Assembly (NCBI GenBank): GCA_038040175.1
Contig: JBBPIT010000001.1
Span: forward strand, 12,161 to 76,160
Reading direction: 5' to 3'
DNA from: Pseudomonadota bacterium
Lineage (GTDB): Bacteria; Pseudomonadota; Gammaproteobacteria; Burkholderiales; JACQAP01
DNA length: 64,000 nt
In this document: positions 7,715 through 61,818 of the stretch, piece after piece
Position numbering within the stretch: the first letter of the stretch is position 1
Layout of the letters: each line of letters opens with the position of its first letter
The notes under the pieces: model-generated
What the model was told of the DNA's origin: nothing
What the model saw: the letters and a program-made list of their open reading frames with translations, nothing else
Database searches by the model: none
Program-made: the position numbers and the translations under genes

Positions 7715-8101
7715 TCAGTTCGAGCAAACGATAGTCGCGCTCGCGACCTGAGCCGTTTGCGTATTCGTCACGGTGCACTGGGCAGTGTTTCCGTCAGTGC
7801 AAGTGCCCGTGCCAGCAAACGTGAAACCAGAGGGCATGCCGCCGGCCAGCAAAGTATTGATCCCGGCACTTGCTGCGGCACATCCGGCAATCGGCACACC
7901 TTTGCCGGCGCTGACTTTCTGCGCCGCATAGTTTATCGATGTAGCGGAAGAGATCGAGGCTGCCACGCCCTGCGCTGCGGCACGACCGGCATCGCTCGAC
8001 AGATCGATGAACTTGGGCAGCGCGGTTGCGGCGAGAATGCCGAGAATCACGATCACGACGACCAATTCGATCAGGGTGAAACCTTGGTACCTGGACTTCA
8101 T
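7715..8101 (-). CDS. mshA: Major type IVa-like pilin (MshA-like)
   Basis: Trimmed to the ATG at 8101, which follows AAAGGAG. Short leader MKSRYQG then [24 protein letters not shown]. The C-terminal part is Cys-containing and Thr/Ala-rich. 128 aa. Confidence 0.7.
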
Positions 8102-8172
8102 ATCCATCTCCTTTGGTGGGTAAGAAAAGCCACTCAAACGCTTTCGGCAATCGATAAATTGGAGTCTGCCCG

Positions 8173-8652
8173 TCAACATCCCGTCGGATCCACGCTAATG
8201 GCCGGCGAACCGCTCGGGACCAGGGCTTCAACATAGGTGATCCGACACGCGCCCGGTGCCCCGTTGACGTCTATGAGAATGGTATTCGGTGGCGAAGCCG
8301 GAAAAGTAACGGCATCCGCAGTCTGATCGAGCTGCAGCGCGAGAATGATTCCGTTGGCTGTAGCCTGAGGATAGCCATTCACGATGTCTACGTTGGTCGC
8401 TTCCATCGGAACCGTCGACGCACCCGTCGTCGTGATGTTCGACGCCAGCACTTGAGCATGTGCAAGAGCTGCGGCCGAACGTACGCCGCCGTAAATCGCC
8501 TGCGCCTTCGCGGTTCGCGCCTGGGTCTGCAGCGTGATGTAGCGCGGCAGCGCGACCGCCGCCAGAATGGCGATGATGCTGATCGTGACCACCAGCTCGA
8601 TCAGGGTAAAGCCGCCGCTGCGGCGCCGGATTTCGCGTTCAACTGACCTCAT
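8173..8652 (-). CDS. mshB: MshB-like pilin
   Basis: Trimmed to the ATG at 8652, preceded by GAGGGGG. Leader [14 protein letters not shown] then [24 protein letters not shown]. Confidence 0.65.
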
Positions 8653-8729
8653 CGTTATACCCCCTCGAATTGACAAACACGTTCACGCAAAAAACGATCT
8701 CCAGAAATGACGCACGATCCATGCCTATG

Positions 8730-9257
8730 CTACTGGAACCAACCATACTCGGCGACCAGCACCAAACTCACCCAGGTGCCTGTGAAATTGGGCGAACTGT
8801 CCGTGACCGCGCCCGCACTCACCCGCATCGCCCGGTAGCGAACGCTGAAATCGCGATAAGTTGACTGCGAAAAATACCGCCGATTGTTCACCGTGTACAC
8901 CAGCTCCCGGTTCCGCTTGTCGAAATACCACTGGCCTTTCGGCTCGTTCGCGGGCGCAGAATCCAGTTCGCCCAGATAATTTGGCGGCCTTTCCGCAAGC
9001 CAGTTCATCGGATTCTCGTCGGCCAGCGTCGCAATTTCCGACACCCGGTTGGCGAGAATCAGGTCCGCCATCTTGTAGCGCAAACCGGTGCGGATGTTCT
9101 CCGCCGTCGATTCCATCGCGGTTTTTTCCGCGTACTCCTGGTAGTACAGCGCCCGCTCCAGCAGCACGCACACGAAGATCCCGATGAGCGCCATGCACAC
9201 GGCAAACTCCACAAAACTCGCGCCGCACTGGTCGCCGCGCACCGGGAAAACACGCAT
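8730..9257 (-). CDS. MshF-like small membrane protein
   Basis: Single N-terminal hydrophobic segment GASFVEFAVCMALIGIFVCVLL. Position between mshG and the pilin genes, as in MSHA operons. Confidence 0.4.
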   Translation of the reverse strand: MRVFPVRGDQCGASFVEFAVCMALIGIFVCVLLERALYYQEYAEKTAMESTAENIRTGLRYKMADLILANRVSEIATLADENPMNWLAERPPNYLGELDSAPANEPKGQWYFDKRNRELVYTVNNRRYFSQSTYRDFSVRYRAMRVSAGAVTDSSPNFTGTWVSLVLVAEYGWFQ

Positions 9258-9260
9258 GGG

Positions 9261-10490
9261 TCATTTCTTCAGCGCCGCCGGGCCAAGGTCCCAGATCGGC
9301 AGGAACACGCCCAGCGCAAGGATCAGCACCAGCACGCCGAGACACAGGATCAGTATCGGCTCGATCTGCGCGCCGAGCGTCTTCAGTTCGTACTCGACCT
9401 CGCGCTGATACATGTCGGCGATTTCCTGCATCATGTCGTCGAGCGCCCCGGACTCCTCGCCCACCATCATCATCTGCAGCACCACCGGAGTGAACACCCC
9501 GGCGTTGACCGCGGTTCGCAATACGCTTTCGCCGCGCTCGACGCCCTCGCGCATCTTTTCGACTCTTTCCGCGACGAAGCTGTTGTCCACCGTCTGCGCC
9601 ACCAGCGTGAGTCCCTGCACCACCGGAACGCCGCTGCGCATCGACAGGGCGAAGCCGCGCGAAAAACGCGCCAGCGTCGCCTTGAAGATGATCTTGCCCG
9701 CGATCGGGATGCGCAGCTTGAAACGATCCCACGCGTATTTGCCCGCCTTGGTGCGGGTGTAGCCGCGAAACGCGAATGCCGCTCCGACCAGCGCGGCCAG
9801 CAGGAACGGCCAGCTCGAAACCATGAAGTCGGAAAACCCGATCAGCAATTTCGTGATCAGCGGCAGTTCGGCGTTGAAGCCCTTGTACACCTTGGCAAAC
9901 GCCGGGATGACGAAAAGGTTGATGATGACGATCGCGATCGCCATCGCGACAAGCACGAATGACGGATAGCGCAACGCCGACTTGACCTGGCCGCGCATGA
10001 ATTCCTGGAACTCGAGGTGATTGAACAACCTCAGGAAGATTTCCTCGAGCATGCCGGTGGTTTCGCCGACGTACACCATGGCCACGTAGAACGGCGAAAA
10101 CACGCCGTTCTGCCGCTGCAGCGCCACGGACAGCGGACGGCCGCTGTCCAGGTTCTCGCGAATGTTCTGCAGCACCCGCCTGAAAGTCGGATTGCCGGCG
10201 GACTCCTGCAGGCCCGCGAGCGAGCGCATGATCGGCACTCCGGCCTTGAGCAGCGTGTACATCTGCCGGCTGAATAGCAGCAGGTCTTGGTGGGCGACCG
10301 GGCGCTGCGTCAGCCGCTGCAACAGGCCGATCGATTCACCCGCCTGCCGGCGCTGCGTCTCGCCGATCTCCACCGGCGTGACCCCGGTAGCAAACAACTG
10401 GGTCGCCACCGCGGCGCTGTCGGCGCCCTCGACCACGCCCTGCACCAGCTCGCCGGAAGTATTTCTGCCCTTGTAGGCGAAATAAGCCAC
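9261..10490 (-). CDS. mshG: GspF/PilC-family platform protein (MshG)
   Basis: 409 aa starting MAYFAYKGRNTSGELVQG. Duplicated GspF-type domains and three TM regions. Confidence 0.85.
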   Translation of the reverse strand: MAYFAYKGRNTSGELVQGVVEGADSAAVATQLFATGVTPVEIGETQRRQAGESIGLLQRLTQRPVAHQDLLLFSRQMYTLLKAGVPIMRSLAGLQESAGNPTFRRVLQNIRENLDSGRPLSVALQRQNGVFSPFYVAMVYVGETTGMLEEIFLRLFNHLEFQEFMRGQVKSALRYPSFVLVAMAIAIVIINLFVIPAFAKVYKGFNAELPLITKLLIGFSDFMVSSWPFLLAALVGAAFAFRGYTRTKAGKYAWDRFKLRIPIAGKIIFKATLARFSRGFALSMRSGVPVVQGLTLVAQTVDNSFVAERVEKMREGVERGESVLRTAVNAGVFTPVVLQMMMVGEESGALDDMMQEIADMYQREVEYELKTLGAQIEPILILCLGVLVLILALGVFLPIWDLGPAALKK

Positions 10491-10564
10491 GGCTAGATAC
10501 TCACCACGGGGAACACGGGGATTCTCTCGATCTGCATGTTGATCAACTCAAGTGGTAAATCAAT

Positions 10565-12265
10565 TCAGTCTTCCAGTTGCGTGCTGACGCGCATCGCCTC
10601 TTCGACCGTGGTACGTCCGCTGATGACCAGCTGCACCGCGTGATCCTTCAGCATCCGTCCTTCCATCTGCGCGCGCGCGGCCTCGATGAAGCGCGCCGGT
10701 TCCGGCTGGTTGGCAGCCTCGACCACCGGGCGCGTCATCTCCAGCATTTCGTACACCCCGGTGCGGCCCAGGTAGCCGGTGCCGTTGCATTGGGAGCAGC
10801 CGCGCCCCTTGAGGTAGGTATGTCCATCCGCCGCGGCGCCGATGTGGTTGCGCATCCACTCGTGCTCGCTCGCCAGCAGCGAGTAGGATTCCGCGCAGCT
10901 CTCGCAAATGATGCGCACCAGGCGCTGGGCCACCACCAATTGCAGCGACATGGCGACCATGTATCGCGGCGCCCCCATGTCCAGCAGCCGGATGGGCGTG
11001 CTGACCGCGTCGTTGGTGTGCAGGGTGGACAACACCAAGTGGCCGGTCATCGCCGCGCGCAGCCCGGTTTCCACCGTGCCCTCGTCGCGCATTTCGCCGA
11101 CCAGGATAACGTCCGGGTCCTGGCGCAGCGCGGTGCGCAGCACCCGCCCGAAAGTCAGATCGATCTTCTCGTGGATCTGCACCTGGTTGATTCCGGGCAG
11201 CCGGTACTCGACCGGGTCCTCGACGGTGATGATCTTGCGTTCCGGCGTATTGAGTTCGTCCAGCGCGGCGTACAGCGTGGTGGTCTTGCCGCTGCCCGTG
11301 GGGCCGGTAACCAGCACCATGCCGCTGGGCCGGTGGATGATCTGGCGCAGCTTTTCCAGCATCGCTTCCGGCATGCCGATGCGCTCCAGTCCAAGCAGGC
11401 CGCCGCTCTGGTTGAGCAGGCGCATGACCGCGGATTCCCCGTGCTGGGTGGGCATCGTCGAAATGCGCACGTCGATCTGGGCATTGCGGACCCGGACGTT
11501 GAAGCGTCCGTCCTGCGGCAGGCGCTTCTCGGAGATGTCCAGTCCCGACATCAGTTTCAGCCGCAGCACCAGCGCCGGCGCGATCTTCGGGTCGGATTCC
11601 GCCTGCATGTGCAACACCCCGTCGATGCGGAAGCGGATCAACAGCTTCTTTTCCTGCGGCTCGATGTGGATGTCCGAGGCGCGCACCTGCACCGCGTCCT
11701 CGAACACCGACTGCAGCAATTTGACCACCGGCGCATCCTCAGCCCCTGCGGTGATGCCGAGCGCGGCGAAATCGATCGCGTCGCCCAGTTCGTCGCCGAG
11801 TTCCTGCGCCAGCCCGCTGATTTCCTCGGTGCGCCGGTACACCCGGTCGATGGTCTGCAGCAGCAGGGACTCGCTCACCACCGCCAGCTGGATGTGGCGC
11901 TTGAGCACGCGGGTGATCTCGTCATAGCCGAACAGATCGGTCGGATCCGCCATGCCCACCCGGAAGAACGCGCCGGTATCTTCGAGCACGATGGCGCGGA
12001 AACGCCGCGCCAGGGTCTCCGGCAGCCGGGTGGCGACGTCGGGCTTGATGTTGAAATGCTTGAGGTCGATGAACGGGACCTGGAGCTGGCGCGCCAGCGC
12101 GCCGCCGATCTGCTCCTCGGTCAGCAAGCCCGAGTCGATGAAGATGCGGCCGAGTTTGCGCCCGCTGCGCTTCTGCTCCTCGAGCGCCGCCTTGAGCTGG
12201 TCCTCGGCAAGCAATTTCTGCTGGAGAAGAATTTCCCCCAGCCTGATTTTTTCAGGTCTACCCAT
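10565..12265 (-). CDS. mshE: GspE/PilB-family secretion ATPase with N-terminal MshEN domain (MshE)
   Basis: Walker A GPTGSGKTTT. C-terminal tetra-Cys (CESC...CSQCNGTG). N-terminal tandem motifs RLGEILLQQKLLAEDQLKAALEEQ and KLGRIFIDSGLLTEEQIGGALARQ. Trimmed to the ATG at 12265; the ORF-track start at 12304 is a GTG. Confidence 0.9.
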   Translation of the reverse strand: MGRPEKIRLGEILLQQKLLAEDQLKAALEEQKRSGRKLGRIFIDSGLLTEEQIGGALARQLQVPFIDLKHFNIKPDVATRLPETLARRFRAIVLEDTGAFFRVGMADPTDLFGYDEITRVLKRHIQLAVVSESLLLQTIDRVYRRTEEISGLAQELGDELGDAIDFAALGITAGAEDAPVVKLLQSVFEDAVQVRASDIHIEPQEKKLLIRFRIDGVLHMQAESDPKIAPALVLRLKLMSGLDISEKRLPQDGRFNVRVRNAQIDVRISTMPTQHGESAVMRLLNQSGGLLGLERIGMPEAMLEKLRQIIHRPSGMVLVTGPTGSGKTTTLYAALDELNTPERKIITVEDPVEYRLPGINQVQIHEKIDLTFGRVLRTALRQDPDVILVGEMRDEGTVETGLRAAMTGHLVLSTLHTNDAVSTPIRLLDMGAPRYMVAMSLQLVVAQRLVRIICESCAESYSLLASEHEWMRNHIGAAADGHTYLKGRGCSQCNGTGYLGRTGVYEMLEMTRPVVEAANQPEPARFIEAARAQMEGRMLKDHAVQLVISGRTTVEEAMRVSTQLED

Positions 12266-23976: not shown

Positions 23977-24915
<939 letters not shown>

Positions 24916-24917
24916 TC

Positions 24918-24950
24918 AGAGAAAAACAAAGGCGGCTGCAGCCGCCTTTG
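24918..24950 (-). terminator. Rho-independent terminator of the hsp20 relic
   Basis: On the minus strand: CAAAGGCGGC-TGCA-GCCGCCTTTG followed by TTTTTCTCT. Confidence 0.7.
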
Positions 24951-24967
24951 CCCGTTAAACGACGCGA

Positions 24968-25232
24968 TTACTGGATCGGGAGTATCTTCGCAGTCACCGC
25001 CGCCTTCTTCGGCAGCCGCAGCTCCAGCACGCCCTCGCTGTACTTCGCCTGCGCCGGAGGCTTCGTCCACGTCCTGCGCCAGGCTGAAGGCGCGTATATC
25101 GTCTTCCTTCACATCGATGCGGAATTGCGCCTGCGGCTGGTTCTCGAAGTTCATCGGGCGTACGAAAAAGCCCTTGAAGAGATCGTCGAAGGTCTCGTCA
25201 AGCGGGTAGCTGTAGCGGGCCAAACCTGTCAT
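24968..25232 (-). pseudogene. Decayed Hsp20/alpha-crystallin small heat-shock gene (internal deletion plus 1-nt frameshift)
   Basis: The N-terminal frame reads MTGLARYSYPLDETFDDLFKGFFVRPMN...FRIDVKEDDIRAFSLAQDVDEAS. The C-terminal signature AQAKYSEGVLELRLPKKAAVTAKILPIQ* is in the +1 frame. The beta3-beta7 core is missing. The as-called ORF (24747..25232) runs 118 nt into argB. Confidence 0.6.
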
Positions 25233-25286
25233 GTCTGTCTCCTTTTGCGATTAGAGATTGTGTCGGGCGTCCGGCGCCCTTGCCCG

Positions 25287-25316
25287 CTATATGTGCGCGG
25301 GCGGTGCCTTTTCAAG
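25287..25316 (-). promoter_or_regulatory. Sigma-32-like heat-shock promoter upstream of the hsp20 relic
   Basis: Minus strand: CTTGAAA, then 14 nt, then CACATATAG (consensus CTTGAAA-N13-17-CCCCATNT). A good RBS AAAGGAGA follows. Confidence 0.4.
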
Positions 25317-25694
25317 GCCTTCCCCAGGACCGGCGAACACCATGTCCGCGTCCCCGCGATGACTGAATCCCGGCGGCAAGGGGGACGTTTATCTTTCTGT
25401 TTTATAGATGTTTCTATGAACTTCAGAATTTTCTTGAGCGCGTGACCGAGGCAACATGACGTGCTCCGGGTCGCCGGATTTTTGGTTCGGCTGGAACAAG
25501 CCACGGCGTACGCCTCCGTGCGCCGCGGGCGGTTGCTCCGCCCGGGCGGCCCCGACTACATCCAGGCGCCCTGGCGCCACGTACCTGTCAACGCGGTACG
25601 CGCGGTGGCATCGGTCCGCGCCGAGCCCAGCCTGCCAGCCGGCGGGCCGGGCAACCGGGGCAACTCATCCATTACTCCACAGGGGGAACCACTT

Positions 25695-25946
25695 ATGGAA
25701 GGCAAAAAACTCGCTGGTATGGCGCTCGCAGCAACGGCAGCCGCTCTGTTCATGACGGGATGTGCAAACATGGGCGGCGGTGGCGGAACATCCGCGAAAG
25801 TGCATTGCGAAGGCGCGAATGCCTGCAAAGGCATGAGCGACTGCAAGTCCGCAAACAGCTCCTGCCATGGCCAAAATGCCTGCAAGGGGCAGGGCTTCGT
25901 TTCGCTTACGCCGGTGGAATGCCAGAAGGTCTCGGGCAGGGCGTAA
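25695..25946 (+). CDS. bufA: Bufferin-type RiPP precursor (BufA-like, 6-Cys core) with lipoprotein-type signal peptide
   Basis: RBS AGGGGGAA precedes the gene. 83 aa: [23 protein letters not shown]|[60 protein letters not shown]. The motif C-x-G-x-N-x-C-K-G occurs twice. It lies directly upstream of the DUF692 and DUF2063 genes. Confidence 0.7.
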
Positions 25947-25967
25947 ACTTGGCCGAACCTGGCACTG

Positions 25968-26000
25968 CGGGGCATCCATTGCTGCGGATGCCCCGTTTTT
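25968..26000 (+). terminator. Intrinsic terminator/attenuator between bufA and bufB
   Basis: CGGGGCATCC-ATTGCTGC-GGATGCCCCG, a perfect 10-bp stem, followed by TTTTT. It ends 20 nt before the bufB ATG. Confidence 0.65.
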
Positions 26001-26019
26001 CACTCAACATGCAACGCCC

Positions 26020-26859
26020 ATGACTGCACAATCTGCGCTCGGCTTCGGACTGGGTCTGCGCACCGATCATTACGAGGACATCCTCGCGTCCCGGCCCAAC
26101 GTGGACTGGTTCGAGGCGCTCACGGAAAATTATCTGGTGCCGGGCGGCAAGCCGCTGCATTACCTGGACCGCATCCGCGCTGATTTCCCCATGGTCCTGC
26201 ACGGGGTGTCGCTGTCGATTGGCAGCAGCGATGCGCTGGACCGCGATTACCTCAAGGCGCTCAAACAACTGGCGCAGCGGGTGGAGCCGGCCTGGGTGTC
26301 GGATCATCTGTGCTGGACCGGCGTTGCCGGCAGGAACCTGCACGACCTATTCCCGCTGCCCTATACCGAGGAAGCGGCCGGGCACGTCGCCGCAAGGGTG
26401 CGCGAGGTCCAGGATTTCCTGGGACGGCAGATCCTCCTCGAAAACGTGTCCACCTACGTGACCTTCCGCCAGTCGGAGATGAGCGAGTGGGAGTTTCTTT
26501 CGGAGATCTGCGCGCGCGCCGATTGCCTGATCCTGCTCGACATCAACAACATCTACGTCAGCGCTTACAACCACGGCTTCGATGCGCATGATTTTCTGAA
26601 CGGCGTGCCGGCTGCGCGGGTGCGGCAGTTCCATCTTGCCGGCCACAGCAATTGCGGCACCCATATCATCGATACCCACGACGCTCCGATCATCGACCCG
26701 GTATGGGAGCTTTACCAGGCGGCGCTGCGGCGCTTCGGGCAGGTCGCCACCATGATCGAGCGCGACGACCACATTCCGCCGCTGGCGGAGCTGGTGACGG
26801 AACTAGATCAGGCGCGCCGGATCGCGGCGCAGACACTGGCGGCCAGGGTCGCGGCATGA
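26020..26859 (+). CDS. bufB: MNIO (DUF692) family multinuclear non-heme iron oxidase, BufB-like
   Basis: Trimmed to [22 protein letters not shown]...[42 protein letters not shown], which is canonical DUF692. Confidence 0.85.
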
Positions 26860-27638
26860 GCGCGCTCACCGGCACCCAGGCACGCTTCCAGGCCTACATG
26901 CTCGCGGGCGATGGCGGGATTGTCACCGAGATCGCCGGTGCCGACGACGCAATCCGCCGCACCCGGCTCGACATCTATTACAACGCCTACCGGCTGCGGC
27001 TCACGGAAGCCCTTGCCACCGATTACGAAATCCTCAAGGCCTACAGCGGCGACGAGATCTTCGACGCCATCGTCCGCGATTACATCGACGCGCATCCCTC
27101 GGTATTCCGCAACGTGCGCTGGTTCGGCGGGCATCTTGCCGATTTCCTGCGCGACCAGCCGCGTTATGCCGGGCAGCCGATACTGGCCGACCTGGCGCGG
27201 TTCGAGTGGACGCTGGGGCTGGTTTTCGATGCGGCGGATACGGCCGCGCTGCGGTTCGAGGACGTTGCCGCGGTGCCGCCCGAAGCCTGGGCCGGGCTGC
27301 GCCTCATGCCGCATCCGGCGCTTCACGTCGTCGATCTGCGGACCAATGCCGTCGCGGTCTGGAACGAACTCAAGAATGCGAATCACGGCATCGCGCCGGA
27401 GAGCCTGCCCGAGCCGTTGCGGTGGGCCATCTGGCGCAAGCAGCTCTCGCCTTACTTCCGCTCGCTCGAAGCCGACGAAGCCTGGGCGCTGGATGCCATG
27501 CGGAATCACTATAGTTTCGGCGAAATCTGCGCCGGGCTGTGCCAGTGGCTGCCCGAAGAGCAGGCCGCGCCGCGTGCGGCCGCGCTGTTGCGCGGCTGGG
27601 TGGACGAAGGCTGGATCGCATCTCTCGAAGACGCCTAG
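26856..27638 (+). CDS. bufC: DUF2063-family MNIO partner protein, BufC-like
   Basis: ATGA overlap with the bufB stop. [46 protein letters not shown]...LADLARFEW is typical of DUF2063. Confidence 0.8.
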
Positions 27639-27735
27639 CGAGCGCGCAGAAACTGCCCCTGCCGGACGGCGTCGTCGGCGACATGCCGCGCTACATCGTT
27701 GCGCACGAAATCGGCCACGCGCTGGGACTGCGCGA

Positions 27736-28227
27736 TCAATGGCGGCCGTCGTGACCGGCGCCGTGGTCGCCCGCGCGCACGATCGCGGTCACCGCTATTT
27801 TGTGCGCGCGCTTGCCGGCATCTTCGATCACCAGCGTAAGCGGCACTTTCTCCCCGGCAACCAGCGGCTTCTTCAGATCGAACAGCATCACGTGGTAGCC
27901 GCCGGGCGTCAGTTTCACCGGCCTGCCCGCGGGCAGATCGAGCGCTTCGACCGCGCGCATCCTCATGGTGCCGCCGTCCATCGTCATCGAGTGCACTTCT
28001 GCGGCACCCGCGAGCGGACTGGCCACCCCGGTAAGCCGCGCGTCGCGCGGGCTGACGATCTCCATGTAAACACCTCCCACCTTCTGGCCGGGCACCGTGG
28101 CCCGAGCCCAGGGGTCGATCACACGGATTGCGTCCGCCGCCGGCGCCGCTGCCGAAGCCATCACGGCGGCAATCAACGACAGGCGCGCCACAGCGCGAAG
28201 GAGGCTGGTTCTGAAACGAGTCGTCAT
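27736..28227 (-). CDS. Periplasmic copper chaperone PCu(A)C (DUF461)
   Basis: Trimmed to MTTRFRTSLL (signal peptide). Cu(I) motif residues in EVHSMTMDGGTMRM ... GGYHVML. Confidence 0.8.
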   Translation of the reverse strand: MTTRFRTSLLRAVARLSLIAAVMASAAAPAADAIRVIDPWARATVPGQKVGGVYMEIVSPRDARLTGVASPLAGAAEVHSMTMDGGTMRMRAVEALDLPAGRPVKLTPGGYHVMLFDLKKPLVAGEKVPLTLVIEDAGKRAHKIAVTAIVRAGDHGAGHDGRH

Positions 28228-28290
28228 GGTGTCCCGAACTGAGATCGCGAAAGGCGCGCATTGTTCCAGAGGGCGCGGCGTCACGCAACT

Positions 28291-28320
28291 TTGGGGGGGC
28301 GAGGGTACGTGATATATAAT
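28291..28320 (+). promoter_or_regulatory. Candidate sigma-70 promoter of dacC (TTGGGG-N18-TATAAT) containing a G7 tract
   Basis: A perfect TATAAT at 28315-28320, rare in this GC-rich context, sits 15 nt upstream of the ATG at 28336. The G7 run is at 28293-28299. Confidence 0.3.
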
Positions 28321-28335
28321 CCGTTTCGCTCCAGC

Positions 28336-29475
28336 ATGATGAGAATTTTCGCCGCATTATTCGTCTGGTTCGGCAGCACCCTGGCTTTTGCCCAGGCCCC
28401 GTTGAACGGCGCAGTCGCGCTCGGACCCCTCGCCTCCAAGTCGTATCTCTTGGTGGACATGCTCAGCCAGCAGGTCCTGGCCGTCAAGAATCCCGACGAG
28501 CGCGTTGAACCGGCGTCGCTTACCAAGTTGATGACCGCCTACGTGGTGTTCGACGCTTTGCGCCAGAAACGCGTCACGCTGTCACAGCCGGTGACGATTT
28601 CGGAGAAGGCCTGGCGCGCGCCCGGCTCGCGCATGTTTCTGGACCCGGGCAAGACCGTCGCGATCGAGGACCTGCTGCACGGCATGATCGTGCAGTCAAG
28701 CAACGACGCGTCTATCGCGCTGGCGGAAGGCATTGCCGGCAGCGAAGAAGCCTTTGTCGAGCAGATGAACCGCGAGGCCGCGCGCCTCGGCCTAAGAAAC
28801 TCGAATTTCGTCAATGCGCCCGGGCTGCCGAACCCGCGGCATTACTCCACGGCCGCCGACCTGGCGCAGTTGTCGGCGGCGATCATCCGCGAGTTTCCGG
28901 AGTATTTTCCGATGTACCGGTTGCGCGAGTTCCGCTACAACAACATCACCCAGTACAACCGCAACCGCCTGCTCGGGCGCGACCCTTACGTGGACGGCCT
29001 CAAGACCGGCTACACCGAGAGCGCCGGCTTCTGCATGATCGCCACCTCACAGCGCAACGGCCGGCGCCTGATCGCCGTGGTGATCGACGCCGGTTCGGAA
29101 GGCGGCCGCGCGGCGGAGGCGCAAAGGCTCCTCAACTACGGATTCGAGGCCTTCGACACCGTAAAGCTCTACGCCAGGGGGCAGCCGGTGCATCAGCTGC
29201 CGGTATGGAAAGGCAACAGCGAACAATTGCAGGCGGGATTCAGCGACGATTATTACGTCACCATTCCGAAGGGGTTTGCCGACCGCCTCAAGGCCCGGCT
29301 GGAGAGCATGCAACCGCTGATCGCGCCGATCCGCGCGGGAGATAGGGTCGGAACGCTGCGCCTGACTTTCGACGGCCAGCCCTTCGGCGAGCGCACCGTC
29401 GTCGCCCTGCAGACCGTCGGCATCGCCAACCTGTTCGTGCGCGGATGGCACAGCCTGCGGCTGCTGTTCAACTGA
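28336..29475 (+). CDS. dacC: D-alanyl-D-alanine carboxypeptidase (PBP5/6 family)
   Basis: Signal peptide MMRIFAALFVWFGSTLAFA. SLTK (SxxK) and SSND (SxN) motifs. Confidence 0.85.
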   Translation: MMRIFAALFVWFGSTLAFAQAPLNGAVALGPLASKSYLLVDMLSQQVLAVKNPDERVEPASLTKLMTAYVVFDALRQKRVTLSQPVTISEKAWRAPGSRMFLDPGKTVAIEDLLHGMIVQSSNDASIALAEGIAGSEEAFVEQMNREAARLGLRNSNFVNAPGLPNPRHYSTAADLAQLSAAIIREFPEYFPMYRLREFRYNNITQYNRNRLLGRDPYVDGLKTGYTESAGFCMIATSQRNGRRLIAVVIDAGSEGGRAAEAQRLLNYGFEAFDTVKLYARGQPVHQLPVWKGNSEQLQAGFSDDYYVTIPKGFADRLKARLESMQPLIAPIRAGDRVGTLRLTFDGQPFGERTVVALQTVGIANLFVRGWHSLRLLFN

Positions 29476-60717: not shown

Positions 60718-61818
60718 TCAAATCAAAGAACACCTCACCGTTTCGATCACACGATCCATTTGAGTTTCCGACAAATCGTGGTACGTCGGCAGATTGATTG
60801 CACGCTTGTAGAGCCCATAGCTCACCACGTTTTCGGGCTTCGCCTCGAACATAGGCAGCATGCTTAGCGGCCAGAAGAACACCCGACCGTCGATTTCATT
60901 TTTCTTGAATTCAGCAAGCAAGGTTTCGCGATTGAAAGGAATGCCATCGTCAACGACGATGGTTGGCATCCAGAATCCATTGATGGTACCCGTCGGCTCC
61001 GGATTCATCGCTAGCGGAAGTTCTGAAAGCTTCTCGGCGTAGTACTCGAAGACCCGCCGCTTGCCGGCGATGAGTTCTTCAATACGTTCCATCTGGGCGC
61101 AGCCGATGGCAGCCTGAATGTTGGACATTCTGTATTTGAACCCTATCTTATCGGGCCAGAATTGCTTCATCTGTCCACGCGCTCGTCCGTGATTGCTGAG
61201 TGTGAGCAGTTTTTCGTAAAGGGCGCTGTCTTGCGTGACAAGCATGCCGCCCTCGCCGGTGGTGACGGTTTTGCTGCCATGGAAAGAGAATGTGCCGAAT
61301 GTGCCCATCGAACCGGCACGCTTGCCATGCCAGACGGATCCTAGCGCCTCGGCAGCATCCTCGACGATAGGAACGCCATGTCTTGCGCCAATGTCCAGCA
61401 GGGTATCCATGTCGCACAGGTTGCCGTAGAGATGCACAGCGATGATGGCTTTGGTGCACGCAGTGATGGCGGCTTCGGCCTTGGCGGGATTGATGCACCA
61501 GCTATCCAGCAGGACGTCGACGAATACCGGCTTGGCGCCGAGATAAGTGATGGGCGCGGCCGAGGCAATCCAATTGGTGTCGGCAATGATGACTTCATCG
61601 CCCGGGCCGATATCAAGTGCTGCAAGGCCCATATGCAGCGCTCCAGTGCAACTGGACGTGGCGATGGCATGCTTCACGCCGAGGTGCTCACGAAACAGCG
61701 TTTCGAAGCGCCCGATGTATTCGTAGCACCGCTCACCCCAACCGTTGGCAGCGGCGTCGGTTGCGTAACGTATTTCCCGTTCAGTGATCGAGGGTTTGGT
61801 GTAGTAGATGCGGGACAT
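60718..61818 (-). CDS. DegT/DnrJ/EryC1/StrS-family PLP-dependent sugar aminotransferase
   Basis: KHAIATSSCTGALHMGLAAL...EDAAEALGS...FSFHGSKTVTTGEGG (catalytic Lys present). Confidence 0.85.
   Translation of the reverse strand: MSRIYYTKPSITEREIRYATDAAANGWGERCYEYIGRFETLFREHLGVKHAIATSSCTGALHMGLAALDIGPGDEVIIADTNWIASAAPITYLGAKPVFVDVLLDSWCINPAKAEAAITACTKAIIAVHLYGNLCDMDTLLDIGARHGVPIVEDAAEALGSVWHGKRAGSMGTFGTFSFHGSKTVTTGEGGMLVTQDSALYEKLLTLSNHGRARGQMKQFWPDKIGFKYRMSNIQAAIGCAQMERIEELIAGKRRVFEYYAEKLSELPLAMNPEPTGTINGFWMPTIVVDDGIPFNRETLLAEFKKNEIDGRVFFWPLSMLPMFEAKPENVVSYGLYKRAINLPTYHDLSETQMDRVIETVRCSLI

Follow-up and report, generated by a model that had tools for sequence, protein, structure and literature searches.

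A very likely Buf2-type bufferin operon in a Burkholderiales contig, with a predicted lipoprotein precursor and a strong hairpin between precursor and enzyme genes

The window analyzed here, a 64,000-nucleotide stretch of a Burkholderiales contig (JBBPIT010000001.1), very likely carries, to judge from its sequence, an intact three-gene operon, bufA2-bufB-bufC, of the Buf2 type of bufferins ('captophorins'), copper-binding members of the RiPPs, peptides made by ribosomes and modified after translation. It is a further member of the Buf2 family, and standard annotation would name such a locus automatically. The 5-thiooxazole assignment has reportedly been extended across this class, which is said to have been renamed captophorins. 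An earlier reading of the sequence alone (hereafter the original prediction) had described a DUF692 enzyme gene, a DUF2063 gene, and a preceding gene for an 83-aa peptide at this place; its coordinates and the three open reading frames (ORFs) read exactly as described, as does the ATGA coupling of the last two genes, with the bufC ATG at 26856 overlapping the bufB TGA at 26857-26859. A 73-nt spacer with a stem-loop separates bufA2 from bufB, which encodes a multinuclear non-heme iron-dependent oxidase (MNIO), and bufC codes for a partner protein with a region resembling a RiPP recognition element (RRE):

25682-25688, plus strand: GGGGGAA, resembling a Shine-Dalgarno element, 6 nt ahead of the ATG of bufA2 (direct reading of the sequence)
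25695-25946, plus strand: bufA2, Buf2/BUF_6/12Cys (Cys-Lys class) bufferin precursor, 83 aa (NF050166, homologues, substitution rates)
25967-26001, plus strand: stem-loop with an 11-bp stem and an 8-nt loop (25967-25996), then TTTTT (terminator-like in a scan and in folding)
26020-26859, plus strand: bufB, MNIO (DUF692) bufferin maturase, 279 aa (NF050167, PF05114)
26856-27638, plus strand: bufC, DUF2063 plus RRE-like partner, 260 aa, ATGA-coupled to bufB (PF09836, AlphaFold2 model, Foldseek)

The bufA2 ORF runs from an ATG at 25695 to a stop codon at 25944-25946, and the site of its Shine-Dalgarno-like element is purine-rich at the same place in aligned relatives. For bufB the ATG at 26020 is the only plausible start, there being no other start codon back to an ATG inside bufA2; the DUF692 family profile begins at residue 9 of the resulting protein.

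The three proteins match their respective families far beyond chance. We used the NCBIfam equivalog models with curated cut-offs, which are those used by NCBI's annotation pipeline: the peptide scores 77.8 bits with NF050166 ('BufA2 family periplasmic bufferin-type metallophore'), above its cut-off of 60 (E=5.5e-22, residues 8-82), and the enzyme scores 391.8 bits with NF050167 ('MNIO family bufferin maturase'), above its cut-off of 310 (E=1.3e-117), with the competing HvfB, ApyH, MbnB, and ChrH models all falling under their cut-offs for the latter protein (HvfB at 276.9 bits, under 360). Pfam assigns MbnB_TglH_ChrH (PF05114, E=1.8e-113) to BufB and DUF2063 (PF09836; 69.8 bits, E=2.5e-19, residues 7-98) to BufC. 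Profile searches of this kind had been suggested in the original prediction as a check, and they place the precursor with the BufA2 model, the enzyme with the BufB/DUF692 models, and the third protein with DUF2063. The peptide has no Pfam match at all, PF10048 (DUF2282) included, and is therefore not a DUF2282 (Buf1) precursor; together with NF050166, this agrees with its earlier placement as BufA2-like rather than in the DUF2282 class. A database search with BufA2 recovers 227 homologues with identities of up to 93%. Their sources are Burkholderiales and betaproteobacterial metagenome bins; most are labelled hypothetical, and a few are labelled BufA2. An exact-sequence look-up of the peptide returns no record, and a PDB profile search with the BufA2 alignment yields chance matches only. 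The main value of the assignment lies in correct annotation, the small ORF being easy to overlook and its nearest database relatives being mostly named 'hypothetical protein'; nothing found here alters the understanding of the bufferin family.

All three genes are under purifying selection. Compared with three relatives at 76-92% peptide identity, the ratio of nonsynonymous to synonymous substitution rates (dN/dS) is 0.06-0.11 for bufA2, 0.09-0.12 for bufB, and 0.18-0.34 for bufC. The concern voiced in the original prediction, that the small ORF might match no bufferin precursor model or might not be translated, is thus answered by NF050166 and by the low dN/dS of bufA2; its second concern, that relatives might lack an adjacent gene for a Cys-rich peptide, is answered by the close relatives, every one of which keeps bufA2 together with bufB and bufC. 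On a wider scale, bufB lies immediately 3' of a BufA2-like gene in 58 of 80 species-level genomes, nearly always followed by bufC, and the remaining 22 bufA2 genes are orphans or lie at contig ends.

The core of the precursor contains six Cys (C38, C44, C50, C57, C63, and C76; CysI to CysVI) that align with conserved columns, and the motif C-x-G-x-N-x-C-K-G occurs twice, as had been noted, in C38-EGANA-C44-KG and C57-HGQNA-C63-KG. CysII, CysIII, and CysV are each followed by Lys. The earlier count of six Cys holds for the core; the whole precursor has seven, the additional one being C23, which had been missed and which lies in a lipobox. By a pattern-based assessment only, the N-terminus comprises an n-region MEGKK, a hydrophobic h-region, and the lipobox at C23, so that residues 1-22 form a predicted type II signal peptide whose lipobox, LFMTG|C23, fits a PS51257-style rule. 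Such a lipobox is found in 85 of the 120 best BufA2 homologues, mostly with Ala at the +2 position, and is kept in the clade of the window; in more distant members, from Alphaproteobacteria and Legionella, ordinary A-x-A cleavage sites take its place. As Cys23 sits in this conserved lipobox, the mature BufA2 (C23-A83, 61 residues) is probably a lipoprotein on a Gly-rich tether, and by the E. coli +2 rule it would probably be sorted to the outer membrane. To our knowledge, bufferin lipidation has so far been predicted and not demonstrated experimentally. About 16% of Buf2 precursors are predicted as lipoproteins (PMC12452194), and lipidated bufferins are again listed as a prediction in a further study (PMC13056109). 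The clade of the window could be used to test whether bufferins truly become lipidated and what their final location is.

BufB displays the conserved residues of an MNIO. Across 64 BufB sequences encoded beside BufA2 genes, little or no variation is seen at H61, H96, E141, D174, N177, H205, D218, H220, E247, and D249; the residues from H61 to E247 give the pattern H...H...E...D..N...H...D.H...E of the MNIO iron site and are those that we take to map to the metal ligands of MbnB. D249 corresponds to FonB-Asp249, which has been put forward as the catalytic base. The adjacent position, FonB-Phe250, is Asp in MNIOs of the Cys-Lys class and Phe in those of the Lys-Cys (EGKCG) class (PMC13097082). 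BufB reads IERDD here, i.e., Asp250, as do 55 of 63 BufB sequences beside BufA2 genes, and this Asp fits its substrate, since CysII, CysIII, and CysV of BufA2 precede Lys. Its best PDB sequence match, the Histophilus somni MNIO 3BWW, is of the Lys-Cys type and has ERDF where BufB has ERDD.

The HvfC model matches BufC weakly over its full length (31 bits against a cut-off of 142), and an 87%-identical homologue bears the name 'HvfC/BufC family peptide modification chaperone'. As a PDB sequence search with BufC returned nothing, we turned to fold comparison. The AlphaFold2 model, built from a 41-sequence alignment, has a mean predicted local distance difference test score (pLDDT) of 91.8, and its top Foldseek matches are NGO1945, a DUF2063 partner protein from Neisseria (3DEE; probability 1.0, TMt 0.72), and TglI, with weaker matches to RRE proteins of lasso peptides, e.g., TbiB1. 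The modeled structure indicates that BufC has the DUF2063-plus-RRE architecture described for bufferin partners (PME type 1).

The stem-loop in the bufA2-bufB spacer points to a regulatory feature of the family at large. In the window it folds with a free energy (dG) of -27.5 kcal/mol (z=-2.8) and occurs once only, and its counterpart in the relatives L081 and L082 (we denote the compared loci by L and a number) shows a compensatory change of G:C to A:U. In more distant relatives the spacer sequence is unrelated, yet it too contains a strong hairpin. We set 58 distinct spacers from a wide range of taxa against 58 same-length segments from inside bufB, evaluating 45-nt hairpins against shuffles: 47 of the 58 spacers have a hairpin with z<-2 versus none of the 58 controls, and the median dG is -26.9 versus -13.5 kcal/mol (Wilcoxon p=5e-11). 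A strong hairpin after bufA2 is therefore a family-wide feature; it is probably a partial terminator or a stabilizer of the mRNA 3'-end, either of which would favor precursor over enzyme. A term search of two family surveys finds no mention of it. A repetitive extragenic palindromic (REP)-type repeat was considered and rejected given the single occurrence in the window. In the contig closest to the window by BufB identity (L084, 96%), an insert of ~285 bp resembling a miniature inverted-repeat transposable element, with ~20-bp terminal inverted repeats, lies between bufA2 and the hairpin (10250-10607), and the 358-nt spacer containing it folds at a dG of -154. BufA2 of the same contig has lost CysII (C44R), and the many split genes on the contig make a sequencing error possible.

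A second regulatory candidate lies upstream of the operon and resembles promoters read by sigma factors of the extracytoplasmic function (ECF) type:

25558-25583, plus strand: ACATCC-N16-CGTA, a conserved motif like promoters of the ECF/RpoE-ChrR type, with bufA2 ~135 bp downstream (putative promoter)

In L001 and L081-L087 the motif recurs at an equivalent aligned position, its distance upstream of bufA2 being ~95-135 bp, and L002 has a variant whose spacing is wider by one base. In blastn, the similarity between the window and the sister loci starts exactly at 25559, inside the motif. The shorter form ATCC-N16-CGTA shows a ~60-fold enrichment upstream of bufA2 over the remainder of the loci, and it is present there in five distant lineages versus 0.18 expected (P=1.5e-6). 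Its likeness to the RpoE/ChrR-type consensus TGATCC-N16-CGTA (PMC5507510) suggests a promoter function. No sigma-70-like promoter is found in 24800-28400, and no Rfam family anywhere in the window, so that bufA2 is preceded by no known riboswitch or leader. Two further ATCC-N16-CGTA sites occur in the window, both on the plus strand (24742-24765, antisense within argB, and 61405-61428), giving a total of three versus 0.85 expected. The hairpin and the ECF-like motif are general regulatory leads and not unique to this locus, and they offer testable hypotheses on the regulation of bufferin operons and on the balance between precursor and enzyme.

The motif also bears on what the operon responds to. 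One could read the locus as mainly an oxidative or hypochlorite stress operon, controlled by an RpoE/ChrR-like ECF sigma factor with a small zinc-finger anti-sigma factor, in which the thiol-bearing heterocycles scavenge oxidants and copper is secondary. Consistent with this, the motif resembles the TGATCC-N16-CGTA of a singlet-oxygen/oxidative-stress sigma factor, and in L085 an ECF sigma factor gene (TIGR02943 family) and a gene for a 63-aa zf-HC2 anti-sigma factor lie directly upstream of bufA2; in Haemophilus influenzae, an ECF sigma factor with a 67-aa anti-sigma factor induces a related DoxX-MNIO-DUF2063 operon after HOCl (PMC7907618). However, the sigma factor assignment comes from a partial motif match, the window has no gene for a sigma or anti-sigma factor, and the buf2 operon of Caulobacter is induced by copper, not by Fe, Zn, or Mn, and protects against copper (PMC11626156), for which reasons we regard a primary role in oxidative stress as unlikely and favor the copper-buffering bufferin. 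In roughly a dozen genomes (L085/L086, 9058-9886; L006, L017, L020, L023, L024, L027, L031, L032, L036, L038, L057, and L072), ECF sigma factor genes lie a few kb or less from BufA2 genes, several of them beside an orphan bufA2; sigma factor genes have been reported in Buf1, not Buf2, clusters (PMC12452194).

Based on these features and the characterized relatives, we propose the following course of events for the Buf2 product. Transcription would start from the ECF-type promoter at 25558-25583, and the stem-loop after bufA2 would terminate or stabilize most transcripts, with read-through yielding bufB and the translationally coupled bufC, so that precursor exceeds enzyme. In the cytoplasm, the multi-iron oxidase BufB with its DUF2063/RRE partner BufC would convert C44, C50, C57, and C63 into 5-thiooxazoles, at a loss of 4 Da each. 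This step follows C. vibrioides Buf2, whose mature form weighs 18 Da less than the core, with CysI and CysVI left unmodified and a loss of 4.03 Da on each of the four central Cys; the thiooxazole chemistry and the copper role have been demonstrated for both Buf1 and Buf2 of Caulobacter (PMC11626156). The peptide would then be exported by the Sec system and lipidated on Cys23, and signal peptidase II would remove the signal peptide; with Ala at +2, the product would probably be delivered by the Lol system to the outer membrane and sit there on its Gly-rich tether. By homology, a C38-C76 disulfide would form, and the thiooxazoles would act as chelators of Cu(I)/Cu(II) and as a buffer for copper in the periplasm. 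As an extension to the betaproteobacterial clade, we tentatively suggest, as a possibility that we would not favor over its negation, that its Buf2 is tethered to the outer membrane, that the operon is under an RpoE/ChrR-like redox-sensing ECF sigma factor rather than a dedicated copper sensor, and that the family-wide hairpin sets a high ratio of precursor to enzyme.

Among characterized systems, the closest in organization is buf2 of Caulobacter vibrioides (CCNA_03001-02999), which shares the order bufA2B2C2, the six-Cys Cys-Lys core, the class-specific Asp after the catalytic Asp, the DUF2063/RRE partner, and a Sec-type signal. That operon 'lacks a bufD1-like gene' (PMC11626156), i.e., it too is without DoxX, and the original prediction's notion of a compact three-gene variant does not hold, this being the organization of the founding C. 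vibrioides operon itself. The description of the family as barely characterized is likewise dated, for its post-translational modification, copper binding, enzyme requirements, and family landscape were published in 2024-2026. The two operons differ in that C. vibrioides BufA2 has a predicted Sec signal and its core accumulates in the periplasm, in contrast to the lipobox LFMTGC of the window precursor; in that C. vibrioides buf2 is controlled by SigF and the window operon has ACATCC-N16-CGTA upstream; and, in a comparison made by description, in the His following CysIV in the window. The Buf1 bufferins share the MNIO and DUF2063 pair, the thiooxazole chemistry, Sec export, and copper buffering (predicted for the window), but have a four-Cys DUF2282 precursor and a bufABCD organization with DoxX, often with adjacent SigF/NrsF sigma/anti-sigma genes, none of which was found in the window. 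The absence of a DoxX gene, stated in the original prediction, agrees with tblastn (one DoxX domain as query) and the ORF inventory of the window, a weak test; similarly, with one DoxX query and visual inspection, no DoxX-like gene is seen after bufC in 51 loci, which is again weak. DoxX-like matches elsewhere in the loci lie upstream of bufA2 or, in L061, beside a second MNIO-like gene. In Steroidobacteraceae-type loci (L018, L019, L026, L074, and L078; ~7950-9350), a 457-aa gene directly follows bufC on the same strand; by its N-terminal sequence, the product resembles a cystathionine-beta-synthase or cysteine-synthase and may be a lineage-specific addition.

The oxazolin/fontiphorin/gonophorin systems (HvfABC, FonABC) are alike in coupling an MNIO to a DUF2063-type partner (PME1) and in forming 5-thiooxazoles on Cys, and this kinship is reflected in the best PDB match of BufB (3BWW) and the best fold match of BufC (NGO1945); the Haemophilus oxazolin system is also regulated by an ECF sigma factor and a small anti-sigma factor. 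They differ in having EGKCG-repeat precursors and Phe in the MNIO, whereas the window precursor has no EGKCG repeats and its MNIO has Asp250. The RiPP-lipoprotein hybrids (DybA/chryseobasin-like) share an MNIO-modified precursor with a signal peptidase II lipobox, and triacylated DybA has been reported by mass spectrometry (PMC13056109), but their modification is a different one, a macrocycle plus heterocycle. The methanobactins (MbnABC) are comparable in their MNIO-made, Cys-derived, copper-binding heterocycles, and BufB matches MbnB weakly (E=1e-20); unlike the bufferins, they carry a leader peptide in place of a Sec signal, oxazolone-thioamide groups, and MbnC instead of a DUF2063 partner, and they are secreted chalkophores for copper uptake.

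Several points weigh against reading the locus as a functional, ECF-regulated Buf2 operon, for which all the evidence presented is computational. In the precursor, CysIV (C57) is followed by His and not Lys, a context present in only 9 of 113 homologues, which makes the modification of this Cys less certain; and the AlphaFold2 model of BufA2 is poor (pLDDT 55), so that the C38-C76 pairing rests on analogy. The bufB gene has no recognizable Shine-Dalgarno element upstream. The upstream motif agrees with only 4 of the 6 bases of the published -35 element, and neither tblastn nor the ORF inventory finds a cognate ECF sigma or anti-sigma gene, a copper regulator gene, or an efflux gene in the 64-kb window. 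Conservation across the family does not extend to the T-run that follows the hairpin, T-rich tails being present in only about a quarter, so that the element may act by termination or by stabilization. Finally, both genes flanking the operon are decayed, which attests to recent deletions in the neighborhood:

24968-25232, minus strand: Hsp20 (alpha-crystallin) pseudogene, divergent from bufA2 (blastn/tblastn against sister loci)
27641-27745, plus strand: ~100-bp remnant of a gene for an 842-aa DUF5118/DUF5117/DUF4953 zinc-metalloprotease (blastn against L081, tblastn)

In the Hsp20 pseudogene, 162 bp are deleted in frame (residues 46-99), and a frameshift farther on puts the C-terminal 'AKYSEGVLELRLPKKAAVTAK' into another frame. 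All sister loci that fully contain the gene (L001, L002, and L082-L087) have it intact, at 140-141 aa, and L081 includes only its first 19 codons. The metalloprotease remnant encodes residues 407-441, including HEIGHALGL (83% identity over 35 aa in tblastn). Compared with L081, deletions of ~1.29 kb and ~1.21 kb lie on its two sides; their junctions overlap by 6 and 9 bp and may reflect microhomology. L081, L084, and L087 have the metalloprotease gene in intact form, and L085 lacks it. Having considered it as a maturation protease, we rejected it: it is missing in L085 and a mere remnant in the window, where buf is intact. Taken with the bufB start that has no Shine-Dalgarno element and with the damaged bufA2 and spacer insertion in L084, the two deletion remnants might suggest that the buf locus is itself a decaying or silent relic in a region losing genes. 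We hold this to be highly improbable: the three ORFs are intact with every catalytic residue present, dN/dS stays within 0.06-0.34, and the promoter motif, the Shine-Dalgarno element of bufA2, the hairpin, and the ATGA coupling are all preserved, while the state of L084, with its many split genes, may reflect assembly errors.

The intact operon sits among housekeeping genes, in the order slmA-like, HAD, argB, buf, PCuAC, dacC, dat, ybeD, lipB, and lipA, with uniform G+C content (GC), and not in a metal-resistance island. The gene beyond the metalloprotease remnant is itself copper-related:

27736-28284, minus strand: gene for a PCu(A)C periplasmic copper chaperone, convergent with bufC (PF04314, E=4.3e-37)

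Its ORF as listed starts at a GTG at 28284; an N-terminus resembling a signal peptide begins at Met20, and the real start is probably the ATG at 28227. The protein ends in the His-rich tail GDHGAGHDGRH. This adjacency raises the alternative that the same peptide, with the same chemistry, acts as a copper relay or store that feeds PCu(A)C and cuproenzymes such as cytochrome oxidase, rather than as a detoxifying buffer. The PCu(A)C gene keeps its place directly downstream across the clade, even where the 842-aa gene separates it from bufC, there are no copper-resistance genes in the vicinity, and membrane tethering would suit a hand-off. Against this, the adjacency is confined to the clade of the window (L002, L081, and L084-L087), where all the flanks (dacC-dat-ybeD-lipB-lipA) are syntenic, and is explained by descent; among the 80 species-level loci only L002, a member of this clade, has PCuAC nearby, the adjacency being absent from the other 79. 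Further, PCuAC and buf are convergent and not co-transcribed, and the characterized bufferins protect against copper excess (PMC11626156). We accordingly give the relay little credence and retain the buffering role for the Buf2 peptide; PCuAC as a general fourth component of bufferin operons is rejected on the same ground, its restriction to a single syntenic clade.

Farther from the operon, the GC of the window drops from ~0.63-0.65 to 0.54-0.60 across ~42000-64000, a block with ORFs resembling those for sugar-nucleotide enzymes, glycosyltransferases, and ABC transporters. By eye, it looks like an O-antigen or polysaccharide cluster and was possibly acquired horizontally. At the opposite end, the ORFs at 1-12 kb resemble, likewise by eye, a type IV pilus or MSHA-type cluster.

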